A stretch of DNA of 32,000 nucleotides from Candidatus Omnitrophota bacterium (GTDB lineage: Bacteria; Omnitrophota; Gorgyraeia; Duberdicusellales; 4484-171), in contig JAIPHU010000004.1 of the NCBI GenBank assembly GCA_021735045.1, positions 39,888 to 71,887 of the forward strand. The letters are read 5' to 3'. Below, in pieces: positions 25,251 through 31,695 of this stretch; position 1 is the first letter of the stretch, and each line of letters begins with the position of its first letter. The position numbers were made by a program, and so were the translations under genes. A model generated the notes under the pieces. That model did no database searches. It saw only the letters and a list, made by a program, of their open reading frames with translations, and had not been told where the DNA came from.

Positions 25251-26885
25251 ATGTTTAATTTTTCAAAGTTTCAAAAACCACAACGCTATATCGGCAATGA
25301 GTTAAATGTAATCAAAAAAGATCATTACAAAAAAACCTCCTTCTGTCTTTGTTACCCCAACCTTTATGAGATTGGAATGGATAATTTAGGCCTACGAATC
25401 ATCTATGGCCTCCTCAATTCTTACCCTGATATTGTTTGTGAACGTTGTTTTTTACCCGGCTCAGATCTTCAGGAATTTTTAGAAAAAAAACATCAGCCAT
25501 TGTTTTCACTGGAGACTAAAACGCCTTTGCTTGATTTTGATTTAATTGGATTTAACTTTGGCTATGAACTGAATTATTTAAATTTTCTCCAAATGCTTGA
25601 AAGTGGAGGGGTCTGTTTAAAAAGCAAAAATCGTAAAAAGATAATCGTCTTGGGCGGCGGAGTTGCTAACCCAGAGCCCTTGGCAGATTTTGTCGATGTT
25701 TTTTGCCTGGGAGATTTTGAGGCAGTATCGAATAAGCTGGTTGAAGTGTTACGAAAACACAAAGATAAGGCCAGCCGCCTAAAAGAACTTTCACAAAGGG
25801 AAAGTTTTTATGTCCCCCAATTTTATGACTTATCTTTTTCTAAGAACTATTATCAATTAGAAAAAAAGTACCGCAAAGCAAATCCTATAATCAAACAAAG
25901 TAAAGTCAAAAATTTAGATAAAAGTTTTTTTCCACTTAATTGGATAACTCCTCATACTAAACTCACTCAAGATAGAGTACCAATTGAGATAGCAAGAGGC
26001 TGTCCTAATAACTGCAATTTTTGCCAAGCTAGAAATATCTATTATCCTTATCGGGAAAAAAAAGTTAAAACTATTTTAAATACAATTAAAACTGTATATA
26101 AAAATAGCGGTTACGAAAGGTTCTCGTTACTCTCACTTTCTACCTCTAACTACTCACAGATAAAAAAGCTAATAAATGCTATTTTTCCTTTTATAAAGGA
26201 AAATAAAATTTCTATAAACTTACCTTCCTTAAGGATTGGAGATGAAATTGAACCTCTTTATAAAAAACTACTGACAATCCAAAAGACATCACTAACTGTA
26301 GCTATAGAAGCCGGTAGGCCCTATCTTAGAAAAAAAATAAATAAAAATATTGCGGTTGATAAGTTATTTGATTCTGCTGCTAGCTTGCATAGTCTAGGCC
26401 TAAGGATGATTAAGGTTTACTTTATGTATGGCTTCCCCAAAGAAGAGAAAAAAGATCTTTTAGCTATAGGTAATCTCATAAAAAACCTGCTGAAAAAAAC
26501 TCCTTTTAAAATTAACATCAGTATTAATTTGTTTATTCCCAAACCATTTTCGCCGTGGGAAAATAAGCCGCTTTTAGGCCCCGCTAAAGCGAAAAACAAC
26601 AAAAAGATTATTTTAACTAATATACCCAGGAGTAAACGGCTTAAAATTTCTTTTTCCAATATTGATACAAGTTTAATCGAGGCTATAATTTCACGGGGCG
26701 ACCGCAACCTTGGCCCCGTATTTGTGCAATTGCACAAACGAAGAAAAGAACTTATTGAAAAAAATTTATTATTTAGTTGGCCGGCCTGGAAAGATATTTT
26801 AGAAAAAAAAGGTATTAATTGGCAAAGATATATTAAATCTGAAACAAAAAACTTTCCTTGGTCTTTTATTAAGGATAAAGGATAA
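25251..26885 (+). CDS. radical SAM protein with an N-terminal B12-binding-like domain (TIGR03960-like)
   Basis: CPNNCNFC (CxxxCxxC) cluster motif. Size and its position before a DUF2344-like ORF and after rodA match a synteny seen in other bacteria. Confidence 0.8.
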   Translation: MFNFSKFQKPQRYIGNELNVIKKDHYKKTSFCLCYPNLYEIGMDNLGLRIIYGLLNSYPDIVCERCFLPGSDLQEFLEKKHQPLFSLETKTPLLDFDLIGFNFGYELNYLNFLQMLESGGVCLKSKNRKKIIVLGGGVANPEPLADFVDVFCLGDFEAVSNKLVEVLRKHKDKASRLKELSQRESFYVPQFYDLSFSKNYYQLEKKYRKANPIIKQSKVKNLDKSFFPLNWITPHTKLTQDRVPIEIARGCPNNCNFCQARNIYYPYREKKVKTILNTIKTVYKNSGYERFSLLSLSTSNYSQIKKLINAIFPFIKENKISINLPSLRIGDEIEPLYKKLLTIQKTSLTVAIEAGRPYLRKKINKNIAVDKLFDSAASLHSLGLRMIKVYFMYGFPKEEKKDLLAIGNLIKNLLKKTPFKINISINLFIPKPFSPWENKPLLGPAKAKNNKKIILTNIPRSKRLKISFSNIDTSLIEAIISRGDRNLGPVFVQLHKRRKELIEKNLLFSWPAWKDILEKKGINWQRYIKSETKNFPWSFIKDKG

Positions 26886-26916: not shown

Positions 26917-27222
26917 ATGCAGGATATTAAATTTCCAGTTAGTTTAAAAATAGAAAAAAAGGGAAAGATGGTCTATTTTTCTCAACTTGACTTATCCCTT
27001 ACCCTCAAAAGAGCCCTGCGGCGGACCGACTTGCCTAACTACTTTACAAAAGGATTTAGGCCGCATATCAAAGTTAGTTTTAAAGGAGCTCTAAAACTTG
27101 GCGAACAAGGAAACCTTCCGCTAACTTTTTATTTCAAAAAAAGAGTAGATCCTGAAAAAGTTATTATAAAATTAAATTTCGAACTTCCTGAAGGGCTCAA
27201 AATAAAAAAGCCTAACGAATAA
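26917..27222 (+). CDS. short DUF2344 (TIGR03936-like) radical-SAM-associated protein, probably truncated
   Basis: YFSQLDLSLTLKRALRRTDLPNYFTKGFRPHIKVSF matches the family's N-terminal signature. At 101 aa it is about half the usual length. Confidence 0.55.
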   Translation: MQDIKFPVSLKIEKKGKMVYFSQLDLSLTLKRALRRTDLPNYFTKGFRPHIKVSFKGALKLGEQGNLPLTFYFKKRVDPEKVIIKLNFELPEGLKIKKPNE

Positions 27223-27568
27223 TTAACTGTGAAGATATCTTTTTTGCTTGGAAAAATTGCTTGGTAAACTTTCTGGCTTTTTTGTGGTCATATGGTTGAC
27301 AAGAAAAGATATTAATATAGGCTGTCAGCCATTTATCGGAGAAATGTCCCGTTATTGAACTGGTTTCAATAAGCTGTACTAAAGAATACCCTTTGGTAAA
27401 ATCTTTATTCTTACCAAAATATTTTAATATTGTTTTGCCGAACTTTTTCATATTGATTAACTCACAAAGTTGATCAACGTAGCATTGCAACTTCTTTTTT
27501 GAAGACAAAATATCTAAGTTACAACCATTTAAGTTAATAATTAATTCATAGCCGTATGTTTTTTTCAT
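27212..27568 (-). CDS. divergent S-adenosylmethionine decarboxylase-fold paralogue (SpeH-like), substrate unknown
   Basis: Collinear with SpeH: G.ELI..L.GC ... GYSLVQLIETSSITGHF ... IFSC. The ESH/HTWPE motifs are replaced by ETSS/GHFSD. ATGA overlap with speE. Confidence 0.6.
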   Translation of the reverse strand: MKKTYGYELIINLNGCNLDILSSKKKLQCYVDQLCELINMKKFGKTILKYFGKNKDFTKGYSLVQLIETSSITGHFSDKWLTAYINIFSCQPYDHKKARKFTKQFFQAKKISSQLIIR

Positions 27569-28401
27569 TTTACTAACCTCAATAAATTGTTTGGTAACTG
27601 CAAAGCAGCAAATTGGATTCCCGGATTATAATATTTTGTTTTCAACTTTAACTTTAAATATTTTTGTTTTATTTGTTTTTTTGATTTTTTAAGAAAATTT
27701 ATTTTTTTAGAACCAATCACAAAGCTAAAATAGCCACCGGTGTAAGTTGGAATAGAAGCAAGCTGGATAAAACTTAAAGGAAAAACATCTTTTATCTTAC
27801 GATAGTTAGATTTTAAAACATTAGCTTGTAAAAAAGTTGAACCAGTTTGGCGAATCATAATGCCGCTAGATTTAAGTCTTTTGTAGACATCTTGATAAAA
27901 CTTTTTCGAAAAAAGCATTTTAGCCGGGCCAACCGGATCCGGCGAGTCTACTATAATCAGATCAAACTTTTTAGGAGTTTCCTGTATATATTTTGCGCCA
28001 TCATCAATTATCAAACCCAGCCGTTTATCAGAAAAAGAGCCTTTGCTTATCTTTGGTAGATATTTCTTTGAAAGGTCGATAATCGTTTTATCAATTTCAA
28101 CCATTATTAGTTCTTTTACTGGATGTTTTAGTATTTCTCTTATAACTCCGCCGTCACCGCCACCAATGACTAAAATGCTTTCTGGATTAGGATGTGTAAG
28201 CAATAGAGGATGGACTAGCATTTCATGATAAATATACTCGTCAGCTTCTGTAGTCTGAATGACATTATCTAGGAAAAGGACTTTTCCAAAATCTTTAGTT
28301 TTAGATATCAGGCAATTTTGGTGAGCTGTCTTTTTTTTATACAGAATTTTTCCCTTAAGTCCAAACTTTACATCCGAATGCAACGTTTCGTAACACCACA
28401 T
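27565..28401 (-). CDS. speE: spermidine synthase / polyamine aminopropyltransferase
   Basis: YHEMLVH, VIGGGDGGVIRE, VEID and DSPDPVGPA motifs. Confidence 0.9.
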   Translation of the reverse strand: MWCYETLHSDVKFGLKGKILYKKKTAHQNCLISKTKDFGKVLFLDNVIQTTEADEYIYHEMLVHPLLLTHPNPESILVIGGGDGGVIREILKHPVKELIMVEIDKTIIDLSKKYLPKISKGSFSDKRLGLIIDDGAKYIQETPKKFDLIIVDSPDPVGPAKMLFSKKFYQDVYKRLKSSGIMIRQTGSTFLQANVLKSNYRKIKDVFPLSFIQLASIPTYTGGYFSFVIGSKKINFLKKSKKQIKQKYLKLKLKTKYYNPGIQFAALQLPNNLLRLVK

Positions 28402-28781
28402 TAAAATATACCTCTTTTAATCTCATTAATTTGAATATTTGAAGTTTTATAGCATCTTTTTAAAACACCAATTGCTTTATAAGGATCAACTTGGCCGCAA
28501 ACAAAGATATCTAAAGCAGCATAATCATATTCGGGCCAAGTATGGACGCTAACATGAGATTCCGAAATAATTGCTACACCTGAGACTCCTCCAGAAGGAG
28601 AAAACTTATGAAGGCTAATATTTAGGAGAGTAGCACCAATTGCTTTTACAGAATCTTTTAGACTTTTACGAATTTTTGGTAAAGAGGAGAGGTTTTTAGC
28701 ATCCCAGAGCTCGATAATCAAATGAGTACCGGCATAGCTGATATGACCATTTGTACAACAAAACTTTTGCTTTTCTTTCAT
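28401..28781 (-). CDS. speH: S-adenosylmethionine decarboxylase proenzyme (class 1, SpeH/SpeD type)
   Basis: GGVSGVAIISESHVSVHTWPEYDYAALDIFVCG, including the self-processing ES site. TAATG overlap with speE. Confidence 0.9.
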   Translation of the reverse strand: MKEKQKFCCTNGHISYAGTHLIIELWDAKNLSSLPKIRKSLKDSVKAIGATLLNISLHKFSPSGGVSGVAIISESHVSVHTWPEYDYAALDIFVCGQVDPYKAIGVLKRCYKTSNIQINEIKRGIF

Positions 28782-28887
28782 TTTTTGTTAACGTTTCTGT
28801 TTCAGAATCCATAATATGAGTATATATCATAAACCTTTTTTTTTCTTTTGCAACATTTTTTTTATGAGAATAAAAGAAATAGTTTAT

Positions 28888-28915
28888 TTGACCTGAGGCT
28901 AATTTTTGATAGAAT
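28888..28915 (+). promoter_or_regulatory. sigma70-like promoter, TTGACC-N16-TAGAAT with TG extension
   Basis: ttgacc at 28888-28893 and tgaTAGAAT ending at 28915, upstream of the MATE gene. Confidence 0.5.
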
Positions 28916-28934
28916 TCGATATATTATATTTAAG

Positions 28935-30332
28935 ATGAAAAAAGAAAGAACCAGAAAAACAAACCCTCAATTGACCGAAGGAAGCATTAAAACCTCCCTT
29001 GGGAAGCTTAGCTTACCTCTTATCACCGGAGCTTTTCTTCATAATCTCTTTAATCTAGTGGACCTTTTTTTTATTGGACGATTAGGCCCTGTTGCTTTAG
29101 CTGCTCTTTCTGTAGCTGGGGTAATACTTTCGATGTTAATTATGGTTGCTTTAGGTATTTCAACTGGAACTACAGCCTTAATTGCTCATTATACTGGAAA
29201 AAGAGACTATCAAAAAGCAGATAATGTATTAATTCAAGCTATTGTCTTAAGCGTTATTTGTTCAATATTGATGTTAACCATAGGTTTATTTTGGATGGAA
29301 CCTATTTTAAAAATCGTAGGGGCAACCGCGGAAATAACCCCCTATGCCGGAGAATATTTAAAAATAGCCTTCTCTTTTTCTTTTTTTATATTTTTATTTT
29401 TTGCTTTTAACCAGTCATTGCGCGGTTCAGGTGATACCTTAACACCGCTTAAAGCTCTTATTTTTGCCAATGTATTAAACATTATTCTAGACCCGCTTCT
29501 AATCTTTGGAGTTGGTTTTTTTCCAAGGCTAGAAGTTGCTGGTTCAGCTTTAGCAACAGTAATTAGTAGAGCTTTCGGTCTATTATTTTTACTAAGACAT
29601 TTTATTTCTGGCTACTCAAGCCTACATCTAAATCGAAAAAGTTTTTACCTCAATTTTTCAGTTTTAACCAGAATGGTAAAAATTGGTTTTTTTTCTTCTC
29701 TAGAAGTTTTGATGCGTCAAATTTCTTTACTTTTTTTGATAAAAATAATTAGCTTGTTTGGCACTTTAGCTCTAGCAGCTTATGGAATAGTGGTTCGATT
29801 GCGTCTTTTTATTATTATGTTTGGAATATCAACCGGTATTGCCGCTAGCATATTAATTGGCCAAAACATGGGAAGTAATCAACCCAAGAGGGCCCATCAG
29901 GCCGGCTGGCAGGCCGTCAAGTATTATCAAATGTTAGTTGTACCGATTGCTGTTTTGTTTTTTATCTTTTCTTCACAGATAATCGCAATTTTTACTAACG
30001 ACTCAGAAATTATAAGTTCAGCTAGTATCTTTCTTAAATTTATCTCGGTAAGCTTACCTTTTTTAACCCCGGCTTTAGTCTTGGGAAAAGGAGTTACCGG
30101 AGCAGGAGACACCATTGGACCAGCAACTATGACTGGCATATTTCAGCTTCTCTGGAGAATTCCAGTTGCTTATATTTTGGCTAATGTTTTTGCACTCAAA
30201 GTAATAGGAGTATATTTAGCTATAAGCACCTCTGATCTTTTACACGGGATCACGATGGGGATTTATTTTCAAAAAGGCAATTGGCAAAAAAGATATCATC
30301 GCCATAAAAAAATACTAGATAAGGAGAATTAA
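28935..30332 (+). CDS. MATE family efflux transporter
   Basis: About 12 TM helices. The N-terminus LPLITGAFLHNLFNLVDLFFIGRLG and the twofold repeat are typical of MATE. The ATG at 28935 is preferred to the TTG at 28848. Confidence 0.85.
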   Translation: MKKERTRKTNPQLTEGSIKTSLGKLSLPLITGAFLHNLFNLVDLFFIGRLGPVALAALSVAGVILSMLIMVALGISTGTTALIAHYTGKRDYQKADNVLIQAIVLSVICSILMLTIGLFWMEPILKIVGATAEITPYAGEYLKIAFSFSFFIFLFFAFNQSLRGSGDTLTPLKALIFANVLNIILDPLLIFGVGFFPRLEVAGSALATVISRAFGLLFLLRHFISGYSSLHLNRKSFYLNFSVLTRMVKIGFFSSLEVLMRQISLLFLIKIISLFGTLALAAYGIVVRLRLFIIMFGISTGIAASILIGQNMGSNQPKRAHQAGWQAVKYYQMLVVPIAVLFFIFSSQIIAIFTNDSEIISSASIFLKFISVSLPFLTPALVLGKGVTGAGDTIGPATMTGIFQLLWRIPVAYILANVFALKVIGVYLAISTSDLLHGITMGIYFQKGNWQKRYHRHKKILDKEN

Positions 30333-30405: not shown

Positions 30406-31695
30406 TCAACCGAAAAATTCATAAAGTTCATCTACAGGGCTTTTCGGTGCATTTTGCAAACCTTTTATCACATGAGTATAAACCATAGTAGTTTCTAAGT
30501 TTTTATGCCCCAGTAATTCCTGAATCTGCCGGATATTTACCCCTTTCATTAAAAGATGTGTGGCAAAACTATGGCGAAGGGTATGGACTGAAACTTTTTT
30601 ATGGATTTGAGCCATTTTAGCTGCATTTTTTACAGCTTTTTGGATTGAACTAGGGTCAATGTGATGCCTTCCTATTTTCCCATCTCTGGGATTAATTGAT
30701 AATTTGCTCGAAGGAAAAATATACTGCCACTTCCATTCTTTCGCTGCATTAGGATATTTATGCCTAAGCCGATTGGGCAAAGAAACTTTTCCATAGCCTA
30801 ACTTTAAATCCTCTTTGTGGATTTTTCTTGCTTTTTGAAGCTGTTTTTGCAACTCTGATTTAAGGCATTCGGCAATCACTGTTGTACGGTCTCTATCACC
30901 TTTACTGTTGCGGATAAATAAAATATTATTTTCTAAATCAATATCTTGCACCCGCAAGCGAACAAGCTCCATAAGCCGCAGGCCGGATCCATAAATAATT
31001 TGCAATAAAAGAAGGTGCTTTTTATTAACATAATTAAACATCTCTTTAACTTCACCAAAAGTCAATACTGACGGTAAACGGATTTTTTGTTTTGCCCGAA
31101 CAGTATTACCTAAACTTTTAAGTTCAATTTTTAATACCTCTCTAAACAGAAACAAAAGAGCGCAAAAAGCCTGGTTTTGAGTGGAGGAGGATACTTTTCT
31201 CTCTATTGCTAAATAAGTTAAGTACATTTTTACATTTTCTGAATTAAGCTTTTCTTCTAAGCACTTATTCGGATTATTTTTATTAATATAAGAAAAAAAT
31301 CTTTTTATCCAATCAACGTATGTTTGTTCAGTACGGTATGAATAATGTTTGAGCTGAATCGATTTGCGGACTTTATCTATAATATTTAACATCTTGTTAT
31401 TAGGCTTTTGATAATCTATTTTTATTAATTTTGATTGACTTTGGCCGAGTCGGGAATATTCAATAAAGAAATCTATTGCCAATTCTGCCTGCTGCATTTT
31501 CCAATCATCAGTGCTGAGGCCACAAAGGTAATCAAGGAATTTATTGATCGTTGCTTCATTGGCAACATTGCCATATTTATTAGAAAAAATTATAAATTTA
31601 TGCACCCAATAAGCATAAAAAGGAATTTTCTTTTTGTTAATAGATTTATTTTTTACAAGAAATTGCTGAAAATCTGGTAATATATTTTCAAACAT
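30406..31695 (-). CDS. intI: integron-type tyrosine recombinase (IntI-like) with an N-terminal extension of about 100 aa
   Basis: HYSYRTEQTYVDWIKRF, SSSTQNQAFCALLFLF, GSGLRLMELVRLRVQDID, the IntI-specific insertion LRHKYPNAAKEWKWQYIFPS...GRHHI, HTLRHSFATHLL, IQELLGHKNLETTMVYTHV and the tail KSPVDEL. AAGGAGG RBS. Confidence 0.88.
   Translation of the reverse strand: MFENILPDFQQFLVKNKSINKKKIPFYAYWVHKFIIFSNKYGNVANEATINKFLDYLCGLSTDDWKMQQAELAIDFFIEYSRLGQSQSKLIKIDYQKPNNKMLNIIDKVRKSIQLKHYSYRTEQTYVDWIKRFFSYINKNNPNKCLEEKLNSENVKMYLTYLAIERKVSSSTQNQAFCALLFLFREVLKIELKSLGNTVRAKQKIRLPSVLTFGEVKEMFNYVNKKHLLLLQIIYGSGLRLMELVRLRVQDIDLENNILFIRNSKGDRDRTTVIAECLKSELQKQLQKARKIHKEDLKLGYGKVSLPNRLRHKYPNAAKEWKWQYIFPSSKLSINPRDGKIGRHHIDPSSIQKAVKNAAKMAQIHKKVSVHTLRHSFATHLLMKGVNIRQIQELLGHKNLETTMVYTHVIKGLQNAPKSPVDELYEFFG

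Follow-up and report, generated by a model that had tools for sequence, protein, structure and literature searches.

The 32,000-nt stretch of DNA analysed here (the window; positions 39,888 to 71,887 of contig JAIPHU010000004.1 in assembly GCA_021735045.1 of a Candidatus Omnitrophota bacterium) carries a minus-strand operon of three genes. The third of these (ORF3, 27212–27568) very probably encodes SpeDC, a pyruvoyl-dependent L-ornithine decarboxylase (ODC), and the operon, speD-speE-speDC, would then make spermidine from L-ornithine and S-adenosylmethionine (AdoMet). Four observations point to ornithine as the substrate of ORF3: the residues Q65, T69, F76 and Y84, a core nearly identical to that of assayed ODC domains, the absence from the genome of any agmatine-to-putrescine enzyme, and an intact supply of ornithine. 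An initial annotation, made from the sequence alone, had proposed that the third gene encodes a decarboxylase that makes the amine acceptor and so completes a three-gene polyamine module. Signature residues, genome content and synteny all support this central idea. The annotation had left the final product open (spermidine or aminopropyl-agmatine); the evidence presented below points to a route from ornithine via putrescine to spermidine, which needs no ureohydrolase.

The predicted proenzyme (118 aa, 13.8 kDa) matches the AdoMet decarboxylase (AdoMetDC) family PF02675 with 61.1 bits (E 1.5e-16, cut-off 25) but reaches only 24.5 bits with TIGR03330, the equivalog model for bona fide AdoMetDCs, whose cut-off is 75.65. 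Its motif, ETSSITGHFSD, has no Pro at the position where true AdoMetDCs have an invariant one. The homology of ORF3 to AdoMetDC is visible by profiles only: pairwise BLASTP against the product of the first gene (SpeD1) gave no match (E 11), as did a single-sequence phmmer search of the PDB, whereas a profile of ORF3 relatives matched the T. maritima AdoMetDC with an E-value of 1.5e-14. The AlphaFold2 model of ORF3 (pLDDT 96.3) had the T. maritima AdoMetDC structures 1vr7 and 1tlu as its top Foldseek matches in the PDB, with a TM of 0.85 and an rmsd of 1.6 Å. The PF02675 score and this structural match bear out the earlier description of the third gene as an AdoMetDC-fold paralogue of SpeH.

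When ORF3, the first gene product and the T. maritima enzyme are aligned, ETS-S-ITG-H-F stands over SES-H-LTI-H-T. Ser70 of ORF3 falls in the column of T. maritima S63, which holds Ala in the S63A mutant structure 1TMI, and is likewise matched to S229, part of the 'IETS' motif of the D. phosphitoxidans fusion protein discussed below. The predicted autocatalytic cleavage site is at the T69 and S70 codons (27359–27364, minus strand), with S70 becoming the pyruvoyl group. The catalytic and processing His, H75 (27344–27346, minus strand), and the catalytic Cys, C90 (27299–27301, minus strand), correspond to T. maritima H68 and C83 in the profile alignment with PDB sequences, and both are invariant in both family alignments. 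Among 45 diverse representatives that are 34–58% identical to ORF3, residues G6, G60, S70, H75, S89 and C90 are invariant, and Q65, I67, E68, T69 and F88 nearly so. The only elements replaced in ORF3 are the His that directly follows the serine (ES-H, now S71) and the TWPE block (now FSDK). The sequence E68-T69-S70-S71 and the loss of TWPE had thus been read correctly in the initial annotation, but the catalytic His, which it had listed as dropped, is kept as H75 within GHF. Dead paralogues are recognized by the loss of the processing Ser or of the catalytic His or Cys; as ORF3 keeps S70, H75 and C90, it looks fully competent to self-process, and the suggestion that it might be a non-processing regulatory subunit finds no support.

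Enzymes of this kind have been described by Li, Liang, Phillips and Michael (J Biol Chem 2023; PMC10407285), who searched for genomes with two SpeD homologues and one SpeE that lack SpeA and SpeC, and showed biochemically that the odd SpeD copy is a pyruvoyl-dependent decarboxylase of either L-ornithine (SpeDC) or L-arginine (SpeDA). SpeDCs, of which at least 1,000 homologues were estimated to exist, form one clade that is recognized by Gln, Thr, Phe and Tyr residues around the conserved Ser, His and Cys (PMC10407285, Fig. 8). None of the assayed bacterial and archaeal SpeDCs was active on arginine and none on lysine (PMC10407285). Two of the assayed, ornithine-specific enzymes come from Omnitrophota, namely the SpeDC of Ca. 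Velamenicoccus archaeovorus LiM and the C-terminal domain of the SpeD-SpeDC fusion of Ca. Omnitrophica OLB16 (PMC10407285). In the D. phosphitoxidans fusion, whose ODC domain is likewise ornithine-specific, S229 is the pyruvoyl serine and the S229A substitution abolishes ODC activity (PMC10407285, Table 4, Fig. S5). The published enzymes have kcat/Km values of around 1e2-1e3 M-1 s-1, and the accessions given for assayed proteins include WP_128700171, KXK35843, PIU25646, BAJ63311, MBN1518199, OGG79367 and WP_011448617 (PMC10407285). Thus, the enzyme class to which we assign ORF3, the clustering of speD, speE and speDC, and members from Omnitrophota were already known from biochemical work in 2023 (PMC10407285).

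ORF3 shares with the assayed SpeDCs the fold, the size class of about 120 aa, the Ser/His/Cys set, the four diagnostic residues (Q65, T69, F76 and Y84) and the phylum. The core QLIETS..GHF..AY..IFSC is nearly identical: the assayed ODC domain of OLB16 reads ..SLVQLIETSLVSGHF..AYIDIFSC.. (printed also as ..SLVQLIETSLVSGHFAN..AYIDIFSC..; PMC10407285, Fig. S5) and ORF3 reads ..SLVQLIETSSITGHF..AYINIFSC.. (also given as ..SLVQLIETSSITGHFSD..AYINIFSC..). The four diagnostic residues are not shared by the AdoMetDC domains of the OLB16 and D. phosphitoxidans proteins, which differ at these positions (PMC10407285, Fig. S5). The genomic logic is also the same, with a second SpeD homologue in a genome without SpeA or SpeC and without SpeB or AguA. 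ORF3 is free-standing rather than fused, which makes it similar to the examples from Ca. Atribacteria, Anaerolinea thermophila UNI-1 and Ca. Sumerlaeota, in which the second speD homologue is clustered with speD and speE (PMC10407285, Fig. 2B). Those speD1-speE-speD2 clusters consist of the same three gene families, with one AdoMetDC and one ODC leading from ornithine to spermidine and no other polyamine genes; the operon studied here is set apart by gene overlaps of 1 and 4 nt and by its host, an Omnitrophota bacterium with a 0.98-Mb genome. The T. maritima class 1b AdoMetDC TM0655 (PDB entries 1TLU, 1VR7 and 1TMI) shares its fold and the Ser/His/Cys positions with ORF3 but only about 21% sequence identity: ES|SH..HTWPE has become ET|SS..GHFSD, ORF3 has no counterpart of the invariant Pro, and its predicted substrate is ornithine instead of AdoMet. 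SpeDA enzymes (Sulfolobus SSO0536 and those of Marinimicrobia, Vampirovibrio and DPANN) have travelled the same route, as AdoMetDC paralogues that moved 'backwards' in the polyamine pathway. They are, however, close to AdoMetDC in sequence, lack the Q/T/F/Y residues and occur alongside SpeB or AguA/AguB, none of which is found in the genome that encodes ORF3.

The three ORFs are contiguous on the minus strand (28781–28401, 28401–27565 and 27568–27212, encoding 126, 278 and 118 aa). The first two are joined by TAATG (28403–28399), in which stop and start overlap by 1 nt, and the second and third by ATGA (27568–27565), with an overlap of 4 nt. A Shine-Dalgarno-like AGAGG (28415–28411) lies 9 nt before the start codon of the second gene, and a GAGG ribosome-binding site for speDC, read from the sequence, lies inside the 3' end of speE (27577–27580, minus strand), at a distance of 8 nt from the start codon. 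The ATGA overlap implies that speE and speDC would be translationally coupled, and the placement of the two purine-rich elements fits such coupling. Scans for promoters and terminators around the operon gave counts not above those in shuffled sequence.

The first gene (speD, also called speH; 28401–28781, minus strand) encodes a class 1b AdoMetDC proenzyme that scores 115.8 bits with PF02675 and 128.2 bits with TIGR03330. It has its processing site at E74|S75 within ISESHVSVHTWPE and, unlike ORF3, carries the conserved Pro, so that both the equivalog score and the motif identify it as a bona fide AdoMetDC. The second gene (speE; 27565–28401, minus strand; PF01564 and PF17284) encodes a polyamine aminopropyltransferase whose scores with the spermidine synthase models NF002010 (324.8 bits, cut-off 260) and TIGR00417 (312.3 bits, cut-off 249.55) are well above the respective cut-offs. 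Its motif is GGGDGG rather than the thermospermine-type GGGEGA, in line with the rule that separates GGGD(G/C)G from GGGEGA among aminopropyltransferases (PMC11107197). It is the sole aminopropyltransferase gene of the locus (no genome-wide search for speE was made). Thus, re-reading of the sequence confirmed the coordinates and the TAATG and ATGA junctions of the three coupled minus-strand genes given in the initial annotation, and the profile scores confirmed its naming of the first two as pyruvoyl AdoMetDC and spermidine synthase.

The genome assembly comprises 979,624 bp in 27 contigs and is estimated to be 91.4% complete. It encodes exactly two PF02675 proteins, both from this operon. The only protein of the alanine-racemase-fold decarboxylase family PF02784 is LysA (TIGR01048, 484 bits), and no match was found in the assembly to the aspartate aminotransferase (AAT)-fold decarboxylases of ornithine, arginine and lysine (PF01276), to the PdaD-type pyruvoyl arginine decarboxylase (ADC; PF01862), to arginase/agmatinase (PF00491) or to agmatine deiminase (PF04371). 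The earlier remark that no ureohydrolase is present therefore extends from the window to the whole assembly, and the conventional ADC or ODC dependent on pyridoxal 5'-phosphate (PLP), whose presence together with relaxed selection on ORF3 would have spoken against the proposal, was not found. Since the genome lacks enzymes that convert agmatine to putrescine, an ADC would strand agmatine, whereas an ODC closes the pathway without a ureohydrolase. ArgJ, ArgB, ArgF and ArgH are encoded, so ornithine is made, and the gene for MetK lies in the same window, 13 kb from the operon. Two PNP_UDP_1 proteins could handle methylthioadenosine. The argH ORF, which is located next to lysA (L003:2370-3470, contig C16), is 366 aa long, and its match to the 455-position ArgH model begins only at position 91, so that either its N-terminus is missing or its start has been mis-called.

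By analogy with the characterized members of the family, the SpeDC proenzyme would undergo self-cleaving serinolysis at the T69–S70 bond, aided by H75, to yield a beta chain (residues 1–69, 8.0 kDa) together with an alpha chain (residues 70–118, 5.8 kDa), with S70 converted to the N-terminal pyruvoyl group of the latter. The pyruvoyl carbonyl would form a Schiff base with the alpha-amine of L-ornithine, CO2 would leave, and C90 would protonate the intermediate to give putrescine. SpeD would supply decarboxylated AdoMet, from which SpeE would transfer the aminopropyl group onto putrescine to produce spermidine. The ornithine would come from the cell's own arginine pathway (ArgJ, ArgB, ArgF and ArgH) and the AdoMet from MetK.

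A scan of 185,579 species genomes yielded 310 confirmed relatives of ORF3 among the matches to QLIETSS[IV][TV], and we analysed the loci of the best 80 of these 310. Nearly all of the 80 are labelled Omnitrophota, the rest being labelled 'uncultured Planctomycetia', 'PVC group', 'bacterium' or 'Methanosarcinales'. The order speD-speE-speDC was found in 30 of the 80 loci, and four more are cut at a contig end, making 34 in which speDC stands beside speD-speE. In another 26 speDC adjoins CASDC/CASDH genes (nspC, 423–426 bits, above the cut-off), which represent a putrescine-to-spermidine route (PMC10407285), and in the remaining 20 it stands alone, several of these being at contig ends. Both speD-speE and CASDC/CASDH consume putrescine, and the latter pair does so without decarboxylated AdoMet, which argues that the constant gene is a supplier of putrescine and not a subunit that regulates SpeD. 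Loci of the two types (L035:1295-4348 and L059:3986-6882 are examples from the set) do not form separate groups on the SpeDC tree but are interspersed, requiring at least six switches among 61 labelled rows of a weakly resolved tree. This pattern suggests that the downstream spermidine module has been exchanged repeatedly in Omnitrophota around a constant putrescine-making gene. One contig labelled 'Methanosarcinales archaeon' (JAIWAR010000032.1, locus L047) carries an Omnitrophota-like CASDC-CASDH-SpeDC block whose SpeDC shares 68% identity with ORF3; the contig may be DNA from an Omnitrophota epibiont of methanogens that was mis-binned.

Beyond these loci, we found 1,469 word-sharing relatives of ORF3 at similar length, the closest of which are 65–85% identical and, where named, come from Candidatus Omnitrophota/Omnitrophica; ORF3 matched 1,108 clusters formed at 50% identity, at E <= 1e-3. 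The S-x4-H-x14-C spacing is kept in 144 of the best 150 representatives of the 50% clusters, and the diagnostic residues are widespread among those 144, with Q65 present in 140, T69 in 135, F76 in 118 and Y84 in 107. Phages gave only four weak tblastn matches (22–28% identity), one of them a bona fide AdoMetDC of Sinorhizobium phage phiN3. A maximum-likelihood tree of 68 rows, which included the first gene and ORF3 with their orthologues, the halves of fusion proteins and the representatives, separated ESH-type sequences (the first gene, its orthologues and the N-terminal halves of fusions) from ETS-type sequences (ORF3, its orthologues, the C-terminal halves of fusions and the representatives) with an SH-aLRT support of 100. 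Fusions of SpeDC with SpeE, at either end, and of SpeD with SpeDC (ESH followed by ETS) occur naturally, with P0123, P0126, P0142, P0149, P0150, P0157, P0244 and P0278 at about 412–461 aa and P0138, P0141, P0206, P0209 and P0269 at 240–300 aa. In the fusion P0230, the SpeDC half has lost its catalytic His and resembles the degraded Victivallis domain of the literature.

ORF3 is under strong purifying selection. In comparisons with three relatives, its nonsynonymous divergence (pN) was 0.08–0.10 and its synonymous divergence (pS) 0.63–0.74, values similar to those of speD and speE; with synonymous sites saturated, the ratios of about 0.03–0.07 are rough, yet far below 1. We therefore rejected the possibility that ORF3 is a pseudogene or evolves under relaxed selection, the latter being one part of a potential refutation named in the initial annotation.

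Several points weigh against the assignment of ORF3 as an ornithine decarboxylase. It is a prediction from sequence, a structural model and genome context. Its placement in the SpeDC clade rests on printed motifs and on a tree of uncharacterized relatives, and the four diagnostic positions were located with the help of the text and Fig. S5 of PMC10407285 rather than its sequence logo. Position 71 is Ser in ORF3 but Leu in the two printed assayed fusion domains, although the family as a whole varies at this site (S in 56, L in 34, N in 19 and C in 16 of the 144 sequences). Finally, at 91.4% completeness the absence of an agmatinase or of another ODC or ADC is not absolute, and the SpeDC clade includes one arginine decarboxylase, that of pelagiphage HTVC201P, so membership does not guarantee ornithine specificity (PMC10407285). 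It is conceivable, if unlikely, that the free-standing Omnitrophota subclade with 'ETSS' differs in substrate from the assayed SpeDCs and uses, for example, arginine, or arginine along with ornithine. If that subclade did use arginine, the operon would end in N1-aminopropylagmatine and not spermidine, given that there is no ureohydrolase.

We consider it quite improbable that ORF3 itself is a SpeDA-like pyruvoyl L-arginine decarboxylase whose agmatine is turned by SpeE into N1-aminopropylagmatine, as either the end product or an intermediate. AdoMetDC homologues have become ADCs at least three times, with the HTVC201P enzyme lying within or next to the SpeDC clade (PMC10407285), agmatine is also accepted by most bacterial spermidine synthases (PMC11107197), and this genome makes arginine (ArgF, ArgH). 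However, ORF3 has all four ODC-diagnostic residues, the assayed SpeDCs were uniformly inactive on arginine, the absence of PF00491 and PF04371 leaves no enzyme to finish such a pathway, and orthologues of ORF3 are also linked to CASDC/CASDH, which starts from putrescine. It is very improbable that ORF3 is a pyruvoyl enzyme that decarboxylates a different substrate, such as lysine, 2,4-diaminobutyrate or an analogue of AdoMet, or that it is an additional isozyme of AdoMetDC. Substrate-binding residues are poorly defined in this family, the specificity of ORF3 itself is a prediction, and the PDB offers no sequence or fold match to any SpeDC-type protein; still, the low TIGR03330 score and the missing Pro speak against an AdoMetDC, lysine was used by none of the assayed homologues (PMC10407285), and the operon would be left lacking a diamine acceptor if ORF3 were not an ODC, since no other ODC or ADC is encoded. 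We would give hardly any credence to ORF3 being a dead, non-processing regulator of SpeD. Such proteins do exist: in trypanosomatids the live AdoMetDC is activated by dead paralogues (the trypanosome prozyme), degraded SpeDC domains occur in fusions from Lentisphaerota (PMC10407285), the SpeD fusion of Victivallis has a degraded C-terminal domain, and the relative P0230 lacks its His. But the residues that degraded domains lose, S70, H75 and C90, are present in ORF3 and invariant in diverse relatives, and about one-third of the Omnitrophota orthologues stand beside CASDC/CASDH, with no SpeD nearby, in a pathway that does without decarboxylated AdoMet.

The operon is bordered upstream by a divergent MATE transporter gene (28848–30332, plus strand), followed by a tyrosine recombinase gene (30406–31695, minus strand; PF00589 and PF13495) that lies two genes upstream of the operon. 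The spe operon does not itself look like a cassette, showing no sign of being one. Downstream, a convergent DUF2344 ORF (26917–27222, plus strand) overlaps the 3' end of speDC with its last 11 nt; at 101 aa, it matches profile positions 4–93 of 176, about half the length, and is preceded by a radical-SAM gene (25251–26885). An Rfam scan of the window found only a single tRNA, away from the operon.

The label 'S-adenosylmethionine decarboxylase' that relatives of ORF3 carry in public databases is probably wrong; the correct annotation for ORF3 would be SpeDC, pyruvoyl ornithine decarboxylase, a correction that matters little beyond annotation. The arrangement speD-speE-speDC, with a second AdoMetDC-fold gene, is ordinary for Omnitrophota. 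It has been proposed that pyruvoyl ODCs relieve the dependence on PLP in this phylum (PMC10407285). The genome studied here does not clearly illustrate this proposal, as it still encodes PdxJ (303.7 bits; G000:C6:56370-57065) and the PLP-dependent LysA. PdxS is absent, and a PLP-sparing rationale for the pyruvoyl ODC is accordingly not clear-cut; the statement in the literature that Omnitrophota throughout lack PLP synthesis, or have only part of it, may not fully hold for this genome. What this sub-megabase Omnitrophota genome appears to retain is a route of three genes that leads all the way from ornithine to spermidine and is cofactor-cheap, and the retention of the complete route suggests that spermidine is important even in a genome so reduced.

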